A stretch of 64,000 nucleotides of DNA from an uncultured Solirubrobacterales bacterium. GTDB lineage: Bacteria > Actinomycetota > Thermoleophilia > Solirubrobacterales > 70-9. The notes beneath the pieces are model-generated. The model had not been told where the DNA came from and did not search any database. It worked only from the letters and a program-made list of their open reading frames with translations. Numbering within the stretch: the stretch's first letter is position 1; every line of letters begins with the position of its first letter. The DNA lies in assembly GCA_963846565.1 (NCBI GenBank), contig CAWJWL010000001.1, forward strand, positions 487,013-551,012, written 5' to 3'. The translations under genes and the position numbers were made by a program. Below, piece by piece: positions 9,026 through 62,725 of the stretch.

Positions 9026-9144
9026 CCTCCGCACATTATCCCGCGCAGCATTGGCCGGGGCGTGATCTCCACCTCGTTCCGCGAATCCGCCTACGAGCCG
9101 TTGCCCGCACATTCTCGCGCCTCGCGGGCTACGCTGGCCGCGCT

Positions 9145-11489: not shown

Positions 11490-11693
11490 CTACGACTCTG
11501 CGGCGGACTCGTTTGCGATCCGCAGGCCGACGCCGTTGGCGGGGGCCTCGCGGTTACCGCCCTGGGGGGAGAGATCCACGCGCTCGGCGGCGAGGGCGGC
11601 GGGATCGCGCACCCGCGGGTCGAGGCTGACGCGCGGTTCCGGATCACGGTCGAAAGCCGCCGCAACGGCGGTTCGAACAGGTCCCGGGCGCAA
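11490..11693 (-). CDS. Possible small ORF or remnant (67 aa, TTG start), function unknown
   Basis: Codon third positions are mostly G/C and the composition is protein-like (DRDPEPRVSLDPRVRDPAALAAERVDL). It is immediately preceded by an in-frame TGA and has no recognisable family. Confidence 0.25.
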   Translation of the reverse strand: MRPGPVRTAVAAAFDRDPEPRVSLDPRVRDPAALAAERVDLSPQGGNREAPANGVGLRIANESAAES

Positions 11694-11864
11694 TCACCGA
11701 CCGCGGCGAGGCCGGGGCGAACCGCCTCGCGTTCCGGGGCCGGGTCGGTGGCACGAGGCTCGCACCCGGTCGCCCGCGCGAGCCCGGGGCGGAGCGCCGG
11801 CGGACGACATTCGGCGTCGGCCCCTGAGTGCGCGCCGGTCTCCTTGCAAACGCTCAAGCTCTAC

Positions 11865-33441: not shown

Positions 33442-34115
33442 GCATCCGGGTTCTAATCGCGGACGACCAGGCGCTCGTGCGCAGCGGCTTTCGCATGGTG
33501 CTCGAGGGCGAGCCGGGAATCGAGGTCGTCGGCGAAGCGGCGAACGGTAATCAGGCCATCGACGGCGTCCGCCGTCTGCACCCGGACGTCGTCCTCATGG
33601 ACATCCGCATGCCCGAGCTCGACGGGATCGGCGCGACCCGGAAGATCGTCGCCGGCGACGCGGGTCACCCGGCCCGCGTTCTCATCCTCACCACGTTCGA
33701 CCTCGACGAGTACGTCTACGACGCGCTCGCCGCCGGAGCCAGCGGGTTCCTGCTCAAGGACGCGGCGCCGGAGCAGCTGCTCGCCGGCATCGAGGTCGTC
33801 GCCGCGGGCGACGCGCTGCTCGCGCCCGCGGTCACCCGGCGCCTGATCGAGGACTTCTCTCGCGCGCGCCCGGCTGCCGGCGAGGCGCCGCCCGGCAGCG
33901 ACGAGCTGACTCCGCGCGAGCGCGAGGTCTGGATGCTCGTCGCCGGCGGGCTCTCGAACGCGGAGATCGCCGAGTCGCTCATCGTCGGCGAGACCACCGT
34001 GAAGACGCACGTGGCCCGGGTGCTGATGAAGCTCGGACTGCGTGACCGTGTGCAGGCCGCGGTACTCGCCTACGAATCGGGCCAGATCACGCCCGGAGCT
34101 CCCCAGGGCGACTGA
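33438..34115 (+). CDS. NarL/LuxR-family response regulator
   Basis: Receiver IRVLIADDQ...DVVLMDIRMP. LuxR HTH LSNAEIAESLIVGETTVKTHV. ATGA overlap with the kinase gene. Confidence 0.92.
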   Translation: MSIRVLIADDQALVRSGFRMVLEGEPGIEVVGEAANGNQAIDGVRRLHPDVVLMDIRMPELDGIGATRKIVAGDAGHPARVLILTTFDLDEYVYDALAAGASGFLLKDAAPEQLLAGIEVVAAGDALLAPAVTRRLIEDFSRARPAAGEAPPGSDELTPREREVWMLVAGGLSNAEIAESLIVGETTVKTHVARVLMKLGLRDRVQAAVLAYESGQITPGAPQGD

Positions 34116-34275
34116 CCCCGGGGCGACCCGGGTCCTCCTCGGGGAGGACCACCAATCCTCATCGCAGGCGAGCCCGAATCGTCATCGCAGCCGACGAGAA
34201 GAACGTCGTTTCGCAGGAACCTGGATCGCGTTGAAAACGACGCGTCCCAGGACGCTGAACCGAAGGAGCCGAGCG

Positions 34276-34833
34276 ATGGCACACGCAGGACAGACGATCG
34301 AGAACAAGGTGAGCGGCGAGCGGATCACCTTCCGCCAGACGGCGGCCGACACCGACGGCGAGCTGCTCGCCTTCGACCTCGAACTGGCCCCCGACGGGCA
34401 CGTTCCGGGGATGCACGTCCACCCCCATCAGGAGGAGCGCTTCGAGGTCATCGAGGGCACGATGAGCTTCAAGATGGGCGGCACGAAGGTGACCGCGGTC
34501 CCCGGCGACGTGGTCGTCGTCCCGCCCGGCGTCCGCCACAAGTTCGCGAACGGTGGCGATCAGGAGGCGCGGGTCCGGGTCGAGGTCCGTCCCGCCCTGC
34601 GGATGGAGGAACTGTTCGAGACCGCCGTCGCGCTCGCGAACGAGGGTCGCACGACGAGCAAGGGCATGCCGAAGCCGCTCGACCTGGCGCTCTTCGTGCG
34701 CGAGTTCTCCGACGAGGTCCAGGGCGCCTTCCCGCCGCTCGCCATCCAGCGGGCAACGCTCGCGCCGCTCGCCTGGATCGCGCGCAAGCGCGGCCACGCG
34801 GCCCGCTACACCCCGCGCCCGGCGATCGCCTGA
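34276..34833 (+). CDS. Cupin domain protein
   Basis: GMHVHPHQEERFEVIEG...PPGVRHKF. GAAGGAG RBS before ATG 34276. Confidence 0.8.
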   Translation: MAHAGQTIENKVSGERITFRQTAADTDGELLAFDLELAPDGHVPGMHVHPHQEERFEVIEGTMSFKMGGTKVTAVPGDVVVVPPGVRHKFANGGDQEARVRVEVRPALRMEELFETAVALANEGRTTSKGMPKPLDLALFVREFSDEVQGAFPPLAIQRATLAPLAWIARKRGHAARYTPRPAIA

Positions 34834-34911: not shown

Positions 34912-35567
34912 ATGCCGACGAACGACTACAGCGGACCGCCGCGCCGGGTCCGGCTCACCGGCCGGGCGCTGAACGCGGCGCTCGCCCGCGCCCCGTGGCT
35001 CTGGCCGGTGCTGAAAGCGCCGATGCGCGGCTACTTCGACGGCCGCGCCCGCGAGTGGGAGCAGCGTACGAGCGCCGGCACGGTCGACCATCTGATCGGG
35101 CTTGCGACCGCCGTCACCCACGTCGATGCGACGCCCGAGCGCGTCCTCGACCTCGGCACCGGCACCGGGGTCGCCGCCCTCTTCCTCGCCCGCGAGTACC
35201 CGCGCGCCAGCATCCGCGGGGTCGACATCTCCGAGGAGATGATCGCCGAGGCGAAGGGCAAGGTCGGGCTCGATCCTGAGGGCCGCATCGCGTTCCGCGT
35301 CGCGGACGCGTCGGCGCTCCCCTTCACCGACGAGTCGTTCGATCTGATCACGCAGGTGAACGTGCCCCCCTTCTTCGCCGAGATCGCGCGCGTCGTGCGG
35401 CCCGGGGGCCACGTCGTCTTCGTCGCCTCGAGCGGCGAACAGACGCCGTTCTACACCCCGCCGGCGGTGCTCGCGCGCGGCCTCGCCGAAGCACGGGCAT
35501 CGAGACGGTTGCCAGTGACGCCGCAGGGCGTGGCACGTACGTCGTCGGCCGCGCGGCCCGCGGCTAG
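34912..35567 (+). pseudogene. Class I SAM-dependent methyltransferase with one frame change near 35488
   Basis: Motif I VLDLGTGTGVAAL is in the frame of 34912. The family-typical end GIETVASDAAGRGTYVVGRAARG* is in another frame and stops at 35565-35567. Confidence 0.7.
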
Positions 35568-35581
35568 TCTCACGCCACCCG

Positions 35582-36469
35582 ATGGCCGCCGGCGACCGCC
35601 ACCTGCTCCTCGTCAACCCCTCCGCCGGGCGGCGGGCGAGCGCAGCGAGCTGCTCGGCCGGATCGAGGCCGGGCTCGAGCGCGCCGGAGTCCCGCATCGG
35701 ACCGTGCTCACCACCGGCATCGAGCACGGGATCGCACGAGGCCCGGGCGGCCGCCGCCGCCGGCGAGATCCCCGATCGTCGTCAGCGGCGACGGGTTGAT
35801 CGGGCAGGTCGGCGGGGCGCTCGCCGAGACCGCGACGCCGATGGGGGTGATCCCCGGCGGGCGCGGCAACGACTTCGCCCGGGTCCTCGGCATCCCGACC
35901 GACCCCGAGGCCGCGACGCCGTGATCGCCGCCGGCGCGACGACGGACGGTCGACGTCGGCGAGGTCAACGGCAGGCGCTTTCTCTGCATCGCCAGCTGCG
36001 GGTTCGACTCCGACGCGAATCGGATCGCCAACGAGGCCAAGAGGATCAAGGGCCCCCTCGTCTACGCGTACGCGGCCCTCCGCGCCCTCGCGGCCTGGAA
36101 GCCCGCGACCTTCACGCTCCCGCTCGACGGCGCAGCGCCACGAGGTCACCGGCTACACGGTCGCGGTCGCCAACAGCAAGGCCTATGGCGGCGGCATGAT
36201 CGCGGCCCCGAATGCGATCCTCGACGACGGCCTCCTCGACGTCGTGGCGACCGGGAACGGTCGCAAGCTCCGCTTCCTGCGTGGGATCGGGAAGGTGTTC
36301 AAGGGCGAGCATCGTGGATGCGCTCCGAGGTTCAGACTGGCGCGCGGCGACCGTGCGGATCGAGGCGGACCGTCCGTTCGCCGTCTACGCGGACGGCGAC
36401 CACCTCGCAGACCTGCCGGCCGACCTGAGCCTGCTGCCGCAGGCGCTGCGCGTGATCGTGCCGGGATGA
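35582..36469 (+). pseudogene. Diacylglycerol/lipid kinase (DAGK_cat, YegS/BmrU-like) interrupted by at least 7 frame changes
   Basis: Segments LLLVNPSAG, ELLGRIEAGLERAGVPHRTVLTTGIEHG, IVVSGDGLIGQV, MGVIPGGRGNDFARVLGIP, VDVGEVNGRRFLCIASCGFDSDAN, YTVAVANSKAYGGGMIAAPNAILDDGLLDVV and IEADRPFAVYADGD are spread over all three forward frames. Confidence 0.75.
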
Positions 36470-37855
36470 CGGCGCCGCGGCGATCGCCGGCGTTTGCGGC
36501 AAAGGTCGGCGTGGCTCGCGCGACCGGCTCGCTCAGCCGCCGCAGCGGCCGCGGCGGCGGCACGACCTTGCCGGGCCGGCTCCTGCTGCGGATGGCCCCC
36601 GACGCCATCGTCCGCGCTCGGCGCTCGCCTCGGCGACGGGTCGACGATCGTCAGCGCGACGAACGGCAAGACGACGACCGCGGGGATGCTCGCGTCCGCG
36701 CTGCGCGCCGCCGGGCGGACCCGGTCCACAACCGCGCGGGCTCGAACATGAGCTGGGGCGTCGCCACGGCGCTGCTCGAGCAGCGCGGCGACGAGGGGCT
36801 GTTCGAGGTCGACGAGGCGTGGCTGCCGCGGATGCGTCGCGAGCTCGACCCGCGCCTGATCGTCCTCGGCAACCTCTTCCGCGACCAGCTCGACCGCTAC
36901 GGCGAGCTCGAGCGCCTCGCCGACGAGTGGGCCGCGATGGTCGCAGGCCCGTCGCGGGCGGAGCGGTCTCGTGCCTCAACGCGGACGACCCGCTGATCGC
37001 CGACCTCGGCCGCGACCCGGCCTCGCGCCGCGCCGGTGACCTACTTCGGCATCGAGGACGCGTCGCAGGCCCTGCCCGAGCTCCAGCACGCTCACGACGC
37101 CAAGCACTGCCGCCGCTGCGGCGCGCCCTACTGCTACGAGCGCGCCTTCGTCGGCCACCTCGGCCATTACAGCTGCCCGAACTGCGAGGCAGACCGGCCG
37201 CGCCCGACGTCGCGCGCGACCGCGATCGAGCTGCACGGCATGGAGGGCTCGCGGATCGAGCGTCTCGACCCCGGGGGCGCAACTCGAGCTCGACCTCCCG
37301 CTGCCCGGCCTCTACAACGTCTACAACGCGCTCGCCGCGATCGCGACGGCGCTCGCCCTCGGGATCGCCCGGACCGCGATCGTCGCCGGGCTCGAGTCGG
37401 TCGAAGCCGCATTCGGCCGGGTCGAGACGATCGAGGTCGCGGCACCCCGGTCTCGATCCTTCTGATCAAGAACCCGGCGGGCGCGAACGAGGTGCTGCGG
37501 ACGCTGCGCGCTCGAGCACGGACGGGGACGGGCTCGACCTGTGGATCGCGCTCAACGACGGGATCGCCGATGGCCGCGACGTGTCCTGGGTCTGGGACGC
37601 CGACTTCGAGCTCCTCGCCGGATCCGTCCGCCGGGTCCACTGCGCCGGAACCCGCGCCGCGGAGATGGCGGTGCGGCTCAAGTACGCGGGGGTCGACCCG
37701 GAGCGGATCGTGGTCGAACCGACATCGCGCGCTCACTCGACGTCGCGGTCGGGAGGCCCCGGAGCGGCTTTTCGCCCTGCCCACCTACACGGCCCTGCTC
37801 GAGCTGCGGACGCTGCTCGACCGCCCGCGGACTAGCCGAGGAGTTCTGGGAATGA
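36466..37855 (+). pseudogene. murT: MurT (lipid II isoglutaminyl synthase, Mur-ligase subunit) interrupted by at least 9 frame changes
   Basis: Segments GSTIVSATNGKTTTAGML, FEVDEAWLP...LGNLFRDQLDRYGELE, LNADDPLIA, CRRCGAPYCYERAFVGHLGHYSCPNC, LPGLYNVYNALAA, ILLIKNPAGANEVLRTL, IALNDGIADGRDVSWVWDADFE, CAGTRAAEMAVRLKYAG, LPTYTALLELR and GLAEEFWE* alternate between frames. Confidence 0.8.
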
Positions 37856-38640
37856 GCGCTCTGACGCCTGACCCGGCTGCCCCCGGAGGCGAAGCCGACG
37901 AGGCGGGCGGAGCGTTCGGATTTGAAGCGATATGGCACGACGTCGAGTGCGGCGCCTATGCCGCGGACCTGCCGCTTTGGGCCGAGCTGGCGCACGAGTC
38001 CAAAGGATCGGTGCTGGAGCTCGGAGCCGGGACCGGCCGGGTGAGCCTGGCGCTCGCCGCCGAGCGGATCGACGTCACCGCGCTCGAGCGCTCGCCGGCC
38101 CTGCTCGCCGCGCTCCGCGAACGCGCGCGCGAACGCGCGCTCGAGGTCAAGGTCATTGCCGCTGACGCTCGCGACCTCGCGGCAAGGGGGGAGTTTGCGC
38201 TCGTGCTCGCGCCGATGCAGTTCGCTCACCTGCTCGGCGGCAGCGACGGGCGCCGCCGGACGCTCGAGCGCTGCGCCACGGCCCTTCGCCCCGGGGGCGC
38301 GGTTGCACTCGCGATCCTCGCCGACGTCCCGGCGACCGGCCTACCCGACGCGCCGCCCTACCCCGACGTGCGCGAGATCGACGGCTGGATCTACTCGAGC
38401 CAGCCAATCGAGGTCCGCCGGACGCCGGGCGGGCTCGAGTCTCGCCGTCTCCGCCAGGTGGTCTCCCCCGCCGGCGAGCTCAGCGACTCACTCGACCTCA
38501 TCCATCTCGACGCAGTCAGGGCCGCGGAGCTCGAGGCCGAGGGAGCGGCGGCTGGGCTGAGCGCGCGCGAGCGGATCCCGATTCCGCCGACCGACGACCA
38601 TCTCGGCTCCACCGTCGTCGTCCTCGAGGCGTCCTCATGA
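37852..38640 (+). CDS. Class I SAM-dependent methyltransferase located between murT and gatD
   Basis: Motif I VLELGAGTGRVSLALA. Intact 262-aa frame. The ATG overlaps the murT stop (ATGA), and its own stop overlaps the gatD ATG (ATGA). Confidence 0.8.
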   Translation: MSALTPDPAAPGGEADEAGGAFGFEAIWHDVECGAYAADLPLWAELAHESKGSVLELGAGTGRVSLALAAERIDVTALERSPALLAALRERARERALEVKVIAADARDLAARGEFALVLAPMQFAHLLGGSDGRRRTLERCATALRPGGAVALAILADVPATGLPDAPPYPDVREIDGWIYSSQPIEVRRTPGGLESRRLRQVVSPAGELSDSLDLIHLDAVRAAELEAEGAAAGLSARERIPIPPTDDHLGSTVVVLEASS

Positions 38641-39389
38641 GCTCGCCCACGCCCGGTCTGCGCCTGCTGGCGCTCTACCCCGAGCAGATGAACATCTACG
38701 CCGACCGCGGCAACATCCTCTTCCTACGACGCCGTTGCGAGTGGCGCGGAATCGGGTTCGAGCATGCGGTGGCGGGGCCCGGCGAGACATTCGACCCTGC
38801 GGCCCACGACCTGATCTACATCGGGGGCGGGCAGGACCGCGACCAGCGAATCGTCGCCGCCGACATGGTGGCGACGAAACGAGACGCGATCGCCGCGGCC
38901 GCAGGCGACGGAGCCGTTGTCCTCGCGGTATGCGGCGGCTACCAGCTCCTCGGCCACGGCTACGCGCTCGGCTCCGAGCGAATCGAGGGCCTCGGGCTGG
39001 TCGACCTCGAGACGGTGCGCGATCCGGGCCCGCGGCTGATCGGCAACGTCGCGATCGAGGCCGACCTCGGCGACGGCCCGCGCGTGATCGCGGGATTCGA
39101 GAACCACGGCGGGCGGACCCACCTGGGCGAGGGCGCGACGCCGCTCGGGCGGGTGCTCAAGGGGCATGGCAACAACGGTCGCGACGGCTTCGAGGGCATC
39201 CGCGACGGCAACGTGATCGGGACCTACCTCCACGGGCCACTGCTGCCGAAGAACGCCTGGCTCGCGGACCGCCTGATCGCGCTCGCGATCAGACGACGGA
39301 CCGGCTCCGTGCCGGAGCTCGAGCCGCTCGACGATGCGTTCGAGGACGCCGCGCACGACGGCGCGCGGGCGGCAGCGATGCGCGGATAG
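38637..39389 (+). CDS. gatD: GatD (lipid II isoglutaminyl synthase, glutaminase subunit; CobQ-like GATase)
   Basis: LYPEQMNIYADRGN. Nucleophile context VLAVCGGYQLLG. YLHGPLLPKN. Confidence 0.88.
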   Translation: MSSPTPGLRLLALYPEQMNIYADRGNILFLRRRCEWRGIGFEHAVAGPGETFDPAAHDLIYIGGGQDRDQRIVAADMVATKRDAIAAAAGDGAVVLAVCGGYQLLGHGYALGSERIEGLGLVDLETVRDPGPRLIGNVAIEADLGDGPRVIAGFENHGGRTHLGEGATPLGRVLKGHGNNGRDGFEGIRDGNVIGTYLHGPLLPKNAWLADRLIALAIRRRTGSVPELEPLDDAFEDAAHDGARAAAMRG

Positions 39390-47249: not shown

Positions 47250-48420
47250 TCAGCCCATGTGCTCGCGCAGGCGCTCGACGGCCTCGGTGATGCGCTCGTC
47301 CGGCGTCGTCAGCGAGATCCGGAAGAACCCCTCCCCGCTCGGCCCGTACATCGAGCCCGGCGAGATCACGACGGCGGCCTGCTCGAGCACGAGCTCGCAG
47401 AACGAGGTCGATGTATGTCCGTCCGGGACCGGCGCCCAGACGTAGATCGTCCCCTTCGGCGCCTCGACCTCTACCCCGATCTCGCGCAGGGCCCCGACGA
47501 CGAGGTCGCGCCGCCGCGCGTAGACGGCGTTCATCTCCTCGACCGCGGCCTGCGGGCCGTCGAGCGCCGCGACGCCGGCGAGCTGCACCGCCTCGAACAG
47601 GCCCGAGTCGACGTTCGTCTTCAGCCGCCAGTACGTGTTCACCGCCTCGGCGTTGCCGAGGATCGCCGCGCAGCGCCAGCCGGTCATGTTGAAGCCCTTC
47701 GAGAGCGAGAAGACCTCGACCCCGACCTCCTTCGCCCCCGGCGTCGCGAGGAAGCTCGGAGCGACGTAACCGTCGTAGGTCGTCTCCGAGTAGGCGTTGT
47801 CGTGGACGACGAGGATCTCGTGCTCGCGGGCGAGCTCGACCGCGCGCTCGAAGAGGCCGTCGGGGGCGATCGCGCCCGTGGGGTTGTTGGGGTAGTTGAG
47901 GAACATCAGGCGCGCCTTGCGCCAGCACCGCGGCCGGGATCGCATCCAGGTCGGGCGCGAAGCCGAGCTCGGGGACCAGCGGCAGCACCACTCCCTCCGC
48001 TCCGGCGAGCAGCGGCCCGCCGGTGTAGACCGGGTAGCCGGGGTCGGAGGCGAGCGCGACGTCGCCCGGATCGAGGAACGCGAAGCAGAGGTTGTAGATG
48101 CACTCCTTGGCGCCGATCGCCGGAATGACCTCGGTATCCGGGTCGATGACGACGCCGAAGCGGCGGTCGTAGAAGCCCGCCAGAGCCTCGCGGAACTCGG
48201 CTCGGCCGCGGTTGGAGGGGTACTGATGCGTCCCCGGGTCGGCGACGGCGGCCTGCATCGCCTCGACGATGTGCGGGAAGGTCGGAGTGTCGGGGTCGCC
48301 GATCCCGAGGCTGATCACGTCGATCCCGGCTGCCAGCTTCTCGGCTCGGCGCCGCTCGAGTTCCGCGAACGCGTAGGGCGGAATCGCCTGGAGTCGCTTC
48401 GAAGGGTCGGTCAGGGCCAC
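47250..48420 (-). pseudogene. Class I aminotransferase (LL-diaminopimelate aminotransferase-like) with one frame change near 47920
   Basis: The N-terminal 167 aa (PPYAFAELERRRAEK...DAIPAAVLA) are in the frame of 48420. KARLMFLNYPNNPTG...SLSKGFNMTGWR... to the stop at 47250 is in the frame of 47945. Confidence 0.8.
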
Positions 48421-62707: not shown

Positions 62708-62725
62708 GCGTCTCGCTGCGCTCGC

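Follow-up and report, generated by a model that had tools for sequence, protein, structure and literature searches.

Dense frameshifts in a kinase-murT locus of an uncultured Solirubrobacterales bacterium are probably consensus errors over two collapsed haplotypes

Why would three consecutive genes change reading frame over and over while the genes on either side stay whole? The question is raised by a locus in a 64,000-nt stretch of metagenome-assembled DNA from an uncultured Solirubrobacterales bacterium (the window). All genes of the locus lie on the forward strand. The broken ones encode a class I SAM methyltransferase (MT1, 34912..35567; Methyltransf_25/11 match), a DAGK/YegS-like lipid kinase of 293 codons (35582..36469) and, with ~462 codons, MurT, the ligase subunit of lipid II isoglutaminyl synthase (36466..37855). 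Upstream lies a cupin gene (34276..34833; Cupin_2 match), and downstream follow a second SAM methyltransferase gene, MT2, between murT and gatD (37852..38640; profile match), and gatD itself (38637..39389; GATase_3, E=6e-36), which encodes the glutaminase partner of MurT. A first-pass annotation of the sequence had described the frame hops and had called the cupin gene, the downstream methyltransferase gene and gatD uninterrupted. Both descriptions hold: the hops are real in the deposited sequence, and these three genes are intact.

In the three-frame translation and the list of open reading frames, family-typical peptides (NGKTTT, NLFRDQLDRYGE, KNPAGANE, DGRDVSWVWDADFE and GGRGNDFARVLG) switch among the three forward frames. 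Frameshift-aware alignment of intact orthologues to the window DNA, a check proposed with the first-pass annotation, placed 23 uncompensated one-base frameshifts between 35486 and 37819. Two lie in MT1, at 35486/7 (+1) and 35495 (+1), and leave the C-terminal 25 codons out of frame. Eight lie in the kinase gene, at 35631, 35643, 35735, 35770, 35916 (-1), 35946, 36131 and 36314, together with two compensating pairs. The remaining 13 fall in murT, at 36610, 36720 (-1), 36944, 36971, 37016 (-1), 37025-37035 (net -4/-5), 37258, 37439 (-1), 37509, 37517, 37718 (-1), 37752 (-1) and 37815, again beside several compensating pairs. The positions given earlier agree with these within a few bases, but only about 17 switches had been counted, and some 10 compensating indel pairs, each of which shifts 2-4 codons, had been missed. 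As had been claimed, premature stops are lacking in the corrected frames of MT1, the kinase gene and murT. A GC3-phase HMM run over the whole 64 kb detected rapid frame switching nowhere else. Single frameshifts occur elsewhere in the window at 47919 and 62710, and indels are likewise present in the minor clusters of SNPs at 11502-11725 and at 47553-47919.

The family membership of the broken genes can be read despite the damage. Fragments of the kinase gene and of murT match the Pfam profiles DAGK_cat, YegS_C and MurT_C, the last with E=2.3e-20 on one murT fragment. The kinase domains PF00781 and PF19279 lie on separate frame fragments and are both present in the intact 293-aa orthologue of the reference contig described below; judged by this order of DAGK_cat and then YegS_C, the broken gene belongs to the DAGK/YegS-like lipid kinases. 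The corrected murT has the Mur-ligase P-loop NGKTTT in frame, a Cys-rich ribbon and the MurT_C domain, and its translation shows 92% identity to a protein of 463 aa with PF08245 and PF08353. The nearest MurT proteins in a database protein search are all full-length (457-478 aa) and carry the same two domains. Thus, the window gene has the domain pair of the family and a GatD partner in the same operon (the 250-aa GATase_3 ORF), and with its 13 net frameshifts it is not a single frame of ~460 codons. The gene order around murT is kept in 78 related loci, MT2 lies between murT and gatD in 78 of 78, and the DAGK-like kinase gene upstream of murT is part of this arrangement in the Solirubrobacterales clade. 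The P-loop, the Cys-rich ribbon, MurT_C and the downstream GATase_3 partner are shared with the MurT/GatD operon of S. aureus, S. pneumoniae and M. tuberculosis, whereas the intervening SAM methyltransferase gene and the upstream kinase gene set the clade apart from these Gram-positives. The clade arrangement is conserved and unrelated to the frameshifts.

How far does the damage reach? As reference we used contig_22719 of the ENA assembly ERZ25039516 (loci L081, L082 and L083), which is ~99.9% identical to the window over some 60 kb and in which MT1, the kinase and MurT are intact with 217, 293 and 463 aa. In the comparison with L081, a divergent block of 2.46 kb (35486..37944) takes up all 43 indel events and ~111 of the 138 mismatches, whereas 18 kb of flank holds 0 indels and 27 mismatches. 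In the ~60 kb of window outside the block, only 5 indel differences from contig_22719 were found. The count of indels against substitutions, which had also been proposed, thus contradicts the earlier view that the indels came without matching substitutions, a view that comparison with the sister-species locus L001 alone had also suggested and that the comparison with L081 overturned. After frame correction, MT1 is identical to its L081 counterpart in 217 of 217 residues once two insertions are skipped, the kinase in 270 of 292 and MurT in 421 of 456. MT2, whose first ~90 nt lie in the block, has no frameshift and 256 of 262 codons identical; GatD matches in 249 of 250 residues, and the cupin gene shows no differences from the 185-aa gene at the matching place in L081.

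Could the breaks be real, that is, could a rapid series of one-base indels very recently have cost the strain its kinase and MurT and left gatD untouched? The frameshifts are, after all, present in the deposited sequence. The databases searched gave no clean copy of the exact window haplotype (the top MurT matches reach 92%, 90% and 82% identity), and the sole near-identical contig is intact but carries the other haplotype in the block. Look-ups of exact proteins gave no record for GatD or for a 354-aa ORF; a Logan assembly of run ERR12037361 contains a protein identical to one encoded in the window. Nevertheless, such a loss, which had been raised earlier as the alternative to an artefact, is not supported, and we consider it very unlikely. 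A burst of mutation would have had to place its indels in this block and spare the flank, and murT is a single open frame in the sister contig and in ~70 of 78 relatives. The block holds no deletion longer than ~4-5 nt, and its spectrum of 25 insertions and 18 deletions, all of 1 nt save one of 2 nt, runs against the deletion bias that bacterial pseudogenes reportedly show (Mira, Ochman and Moran 2001). As in the pseudogenes of reductive evolution, several adjoining genes are frameshifted; unlike them, the block shows no relaxed selection, no stops and no varied deletion lengths or larger deletions, and its damage stops sharply where the recombination tract ends. MurT/GatD has moreover been reported to be essential for S. 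pneumoniae and for mycobacteria, and to be needed by S. aureus for normal growth (PMC6085368, PMC10484409, PMC3266927), and it is therefore unlikely that an abundant lineage would do without it.

Nor is it credible, in our view, that the genes are expressed despite the frame changes through programmed ribosomal frameshifting or transcript editing. The absence of stops from the correct-frame segments would fit, and nothing further speaks for it, whereas the 23 shifts go in both directions and share no slippery motif or context. They are missing from the relatives and from the sister contig, whose intact orthologous genes effectively refute recoding. Residues never seen in the family are restricted, in the window MurT, to short shifted runs, and these out-of-frame runs place them at invariant MurT positions.

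The best indication of the cause comes from where the indels sit. Taking the relatives as a proxy for a second haplotype, we found that 16 of the 23 insertions in the kinase-murT part equal the base of most relatives at an adjoining site where L081 differs, so that the window carries both alleles in tandem there (null mean 3.9; 0 of 20000 simulations reached 16). An independent insertion test, with the sister species as reference, yielded 5 of 16 where 0.99 were expected (P=0.002). The one-base deletions behave alike: with the same proxy, 14 of 17 take out a site at which the L081 base is not that of the majority (5.8 under the null, P=0.00025). The two MT1 insertions are allele doublets, GCG/GCC giving GCCG and GGC/GGG giving GGGC. 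Such tandem doublets have no known mutational source, which again speaks against real breaks. Neither doublets nor variable-site deletions account for about 5-7 of the 23 net frameshifts, and a few are plain changes in homopolymer length (35770, 37718). For most of the events a homopolymer origin was rejected: as regards the question posed earlier of whether the indels sit in homopolymer runs, 30 of the 42 one-base events have no adjoining identical base. Basecalling errors at methylation motifs were rejected as well, with no enrichment near GATC or CGATCG, and a nominal enrichment of GCGC near the indels arises simply because G or C was inserted where the sequence is GC-rich. With all 43 events inside the divergent block, the compared flank clean, the insertions doubling alleles and the deletions losing variable sites, the locus shows what a collapsed pair of haplotypes would be expected to leave.

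A different artefact has to be weighed against this signature, namely that a rare variant supplied the block through one or a handful of noisy long reads, as a bubble branch of low coverage that was never effectively polished and in which raw-read indels persist. The damage is indeed limited to exactly the segment where the haplotype departs from the common one, the indel density of ~1.8% in total is near raw long-read error levels, and isolated frameshifts, both at 47919 and 62710 and in further MAGs from the clade, point to an imperfect consensus in general. Raw noise, however, should ignore variable sites, on which most of the insertions and deletions sit, and should bring comparable substitution errors, whereas the isolated unique substitutions are nearly all alleles of relatives (see below). 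Nanopore noise is biased toward deletions and homopolymers, while here insertions dominate and most events lie outside any run. We therefore regard an origin from a few noisy reads as unlikely, although it deserves more weight than real breaks. One-base indels that are insertion-biased, mostly outside homopolymers and on allele-variable sites are rather the signature of a long-read consensus over collapsed haplotypes.

Are the substitutions in the block errors, too? Isolated changes unique to the window comprise 36 synonymous and 25 non-synonymous ones, whereas random hits of the same spectrum would give 11.9 +/- 2.9 synonymous among these 61; selection has thus filtered them, with no sign of the relaxed constraint expected of a pseudogene. 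Among 59 isolated unique substitutions, 38 agree with the base that prevails among 15 outgroup loci, 55 recur in at least one outgroup, and many residues of the window MurT are the family majority. An interim view, drawn from codon positions, that half of the unique substitutions were noise was discarded after outgroup polarisation, by which nearly all are real alleles. Since the block substitutions are mostly synonymous and mostly outgroup bases, they are genuine allelic differences and not decay, and the block is thus a real divergent haplotype, i.e. a recombination tract.

Based on these observations, we propose that the frameshifts are most probably consensus errors from two strain variants merged in the assembly, and not dying genes. 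The population would contain two versions of the 2.46-kb segment, which covers the end of the methyltransferase gene, the lipid kinase gene and murT, and these would lie a few per cent apart because one was replaced through homologous recombination. The assembler would have kept a single path, with the consensus built or polished from reads of both versions. At differing sites the consensus would then hold one allele, or both in succession (a one-base insertion), or neither (a one-base deletion), and the outcome would be otherwise healthy-looking coding sequence with a frame change every 50-100 nt. We infer that the second haplotype is in the same read set and that a long-read metagenome assembly went wrong when its consensus was derived or polished. 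Related MAGs of the clade were assembled by Flye --meta from Nanopore reads only and given one Medaka round (PMC12313526), and murT is split in five other such MAG loci. The contigs contig_22719 and contig_818, which are close relatives, occur in one ENA assembly and hence coexist in one sample. The sister species of contig_818 (L001) was considered as the second haplotype and rejected: it is ~10% different from the window in the block, and many window alleles are found in neither L081 nor the sister.

Placement of the indels on variable sites would also be explained, without any assembler, if the recombination event itself had made them: heteroduplex mismatches at allelic differences would have undergone error-prone processing into one-base indels; in an actinobacterium, a NucS/EndoMS-type cut whose ends were then rejoined inaccurately might account for this. 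A single event would thereby have inactivated two genes, including an essential one. We hold this to be extremely improbable.

The proposed merger of two haplotypes has counterparts among known assembly errors. In collapsed long-read assemblies, one contig path likewise stands for two haplotypes, and errors are confined to the differing segment and its variable sites, so that a mosaic containing spurious indels results. Haplotype-aware tools such as Hapo-G (PMC8092372) or Strainberry (PMC8302730) address errors of this kind at heterozygous or strain-variable sites, and the match of the window block to such cases is one of sequence signature. Homopolymer-indel frameshifts in MAGs have been described by Sereika et al. 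2022 (PMC9262707) and in the proovframe preprint (10.1101/2021.08.23.457338), and these ordinary Nanopore/PacBio errors likewise break the open frames of healthy genes by one-base indels. The related MAGs are Nanopore-only, and isolated cases occur in the window and in sister MAGs. The block events differ from them: they are ~200 times denser than across the remaining window, mostly outside homopolymers, insertion-biased and on polymorphic sites. The first-pass annotation had preferred a local error-prone assembly patch to pseudogenisation, and the intact genes in the ~99.9% identical contig and the indels on haplotype-variable sites bear this out; judging by the signature, the cause can be given more narrowly than as generic noise, namely as a consensus drawn from two haplotypes that were collapsed.

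The frameshifted locus is almost certainly not a real biological feature, and its first meaning concerns data quality. The diagnosis can be made without reads, by comparison with one near-identical contig and several relatives and then by testing whether the indels hit allele-variable sites, with both alleles or neither present. Taken at face value, the annotation would list three pseudogenes and would wrongly suggest that a Solirubrobacterales lineage has lost iso-glutamine amidation of peptidoglycan while keeping gatD. What remains as biology is a modest but real signal: a 2.46-kb homologous-recombination tract over the kinase-murT region that separates two otherwise 99.9%-identical genomes.

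The window has a G+C content of ~72%, its nearest relatives are all uncultured Solirubrobacterales MAGs, and the genes discussed here follow one another on its + strand: a cupin gene (34276-34833), the SAM methyltransferase MT1 (34912-35567), then a lipid kinase resembling DAGK/YegS (35582-36469), murT (36466-37855), another methyltransferase, MT2 (37852-38640), and finally gatD (38637-39389). The cupin gene is placed as called in the sister contig (185 aa); a mechanical 263-aa ORF over it (34042-34833) is too long at its 5' end. In the ORF list and a three-frame translation, the kinase and murT fall into pieces spread over all three forward frames, with matches to DAGK_cat and YegS_C for the kinase and to MurT_C for murT. 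We aligned intact orthologues of two relatives to the DNA with a frameshift-tolerant protein-to-DNA aligner of our own and obtained 23 net one-base frameshifts, of which MT1 has 2, the kinase 8 and murT 13; murT has also lost one codon. All three analyses thus confirm the frame switching described in the first-pass annotation, whose positions hold within a few bases but whose count of ~17 was too low. As it had also stated, no stop occurs in any corrected frame of these three genes. A GC3-phase HMM over the entire 64 kb detected no other rapid frame-switching patch. The genes under the frameshifts are ordinary MurT, GatD and DAGK/YegS family members.

Are these frame breaks a property of the lineage? 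Looking for exact copies of the response regulator encoded next to the block, we found a near-identical sister contig, contig_22719 of ENA assembly ERZ25039516 (491 kb; locus L081); two more look-ups gave the remainder of the overlap (L082, L083), and the three loci jointly span window 2239-64000. In L081 none of the three genes is interrupted: MT1 has 217 aa, the kinase 293 and MurT 463, so the frameshifts are not a lineage property. Programmed recoding of kinase and murT is excluded by the intact orthologues, and we give it practically no weight. The flanks of the block are 99.9% identical to L081, and ~60 kb outside it differ from the sister contig by ~70 mismatches and 5 indels, against ~111 mismatches and 43 indel events inside 35486-37944, where the substitution density is ~45x that of the flanks. 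The earlier premise of indels without matching substitutions, made because no close reference was at hand, therefore fails.

The indels mostly sit at sites that vary between relatives. In a three-way alignment with L081 and the sister species, a separate lineage, the window reads GCCG at 35486, where L081 has GCG and the sister species GCC, and GGGC at 35495, where they have GGC and GGG; the same both-alleles pattern recurs at 35631, 35643 and 36131, while at 36720 (ACT/ACC) and 37752 (GGT/GGC) both allele bases are missing from the window. Across the kinase-murT part, 16 of 23 one-base insertions equal the relatives' majority base (taken over 17 relatives) at an adjoining site where L081 differs (null mean 3.9; 0 of 20000 simulations reached 16), and a narrower test with the sister species alone gave 5/16 versus 0.99 expected (P=0.002). 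Likewise, 14 of 17 one-base deletions take out a position at which L081 departs from the majority, or the run containing it (null 5.8, P=0.00025). The block events comprise 25 insertions and 18 deletions, each of 1 nt but for one of 2 nt; 30 of 42 events have no adjoining identical base, and the block indels showed no association with GATC.

Judging from these alignments, the frame breaks are most probably an assembly artefact, of the haplotype-collapse rather than the homopolymer kind, and not a real genomic feature. We infer that reads of two haplotypes were stacked on one backbone, and that a consensus or polishing step would either write both alleles of a polymorphic site, yielding an insertion, or drop the site, yielding a deletion. 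The artefact reading already preferred in the first-pass annotation is hereby both supported and sharpened, given indels on allele-variable sites and intact genes in the sister contig; the pattern belongs to the class of known long-read assembly errors. An unpolished low-coverage patch, which we consider unlikely, would account for the location of the damage but leaves unexplained the tie of the indels to variable sites, the insertion bias and the near absence of substitution errors. Real pseudogenisation of kinase and murT is very improbable considering the both-allele doublets, an indel spectrum that is not biological, the abrupt borders of the damage, the selection-filtered substitutions, the lack of stops and the intact sister contig; MurT/GatD is also reported to be essential (PMC6085368, PMC10484409, PMC3266927).

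Related MAGs and contigs are Nanopore-only, from Flye --meta --nano-hq with one Medaka round (PMC12313526), and we infer the same pipeline for the window. ERZ25039530 contig_33703 is GenBank MAG contig CAWCRP010000005.1, and close relatives were found together in one sample. This sample and pipeline context fits a consensus error, as do the apparent murT splits in five other Nanopore MAG loci of the clade and the shortened genes of the L001 MAG, both detailed below.

Further small differences from the sister contig were seen elsewhere in the window. A one-base insertion at 47919 causes a frameshift in an aminotransferase (PF00155) gene on the - strand, a frame change also picked up by the GC3-phase HMM; with four SNPs in the adjoining 370 nt (47553-47919), it looks like a miniature of the SNP-cluster-plus-indel pattern of the block. 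At 62710, a one-base insertion falls in codon 6 of a gene resembling CinA (MoCF_biosynth/CinA), whose product would have a changed or truncated N-terminus. The intergenic stretch 11502-11725 holds two one-base insertions and five mismatches, and a G5/G4 homopolymer difference lies at 9056, upstream of the prolyl-tRNA synthetase gene. Other MAGs of the clade also show shortened or split genes (L084, L020, L032, L056, L069, L070, L021, L026). In five loci from Nanopore MAGs and two from MAGs that look short-read, 1-3 frameshifts apparently divide murT; at L084, on the L001 contig (MFD04935.bin.2.84), ProRS has 499 aa versus 564-591, NAD synthase 465 versus 544, and two pieces of 253 and 163 aa stand in for a 526-aa protein.

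The substitutions of the block are not noise, and the block is a genuinely different allele. Isolated window-unique changes are synonymous in 36 cases and non-synonymous in 25; for random changes with an identical base spectrum, 11.9 +/- 2.9 synonymous ones are expected. Of 59 such changes, 38 match the base most common among 15 outgroup loci and 55 are present in at least one outgroup, while L081-unique alleles agree with most outgroups at just 3 of 33 sites. Where a derived residue is common to L081 and the sister species, the window often carries the one typical of most of the family (in MurT, for example, A82, V159, Y193, P221, P238, G299, G385 and V390). Residues absent from 120 homologues are confined to 2-4-codon runs between a +1 and a -1 indel; they include R189A at an invariant and G271A at a 98%-conserved position. 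The flanks group as ((window, L081), sister species) and the block as ((L081, sister species), window), with L081 sharing derived alleles with the sister-species loci L086/L001 and the window outgroup-like. This incongruence reveals a real homologous-recombination tract of ~2.46 kb between two near-identical genomes, either of which may be the recombinant. That the indels themselves are real, made at heteroduplex mismatches during recombination, is very unlikely.

The kinase-murT-methyltransferase-gatD order is conserved in Solirubrobacterales. An MT2-type SAM-dependent methyltransferase gene, with overlapping stop/start codons, lies between murT and gatD in 78/78 related loci (set L001-L080), and a DAGK-like kinase gene lies immediately upstream of murT in 69/78. 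We know of no description of such a methyltransferase insertion in MurT/GatD operons of model organisms. The MT2 N-terminus differs by 66 nt in length between the two sister species. The only biology here is the recombination tract and this conserved gene order.
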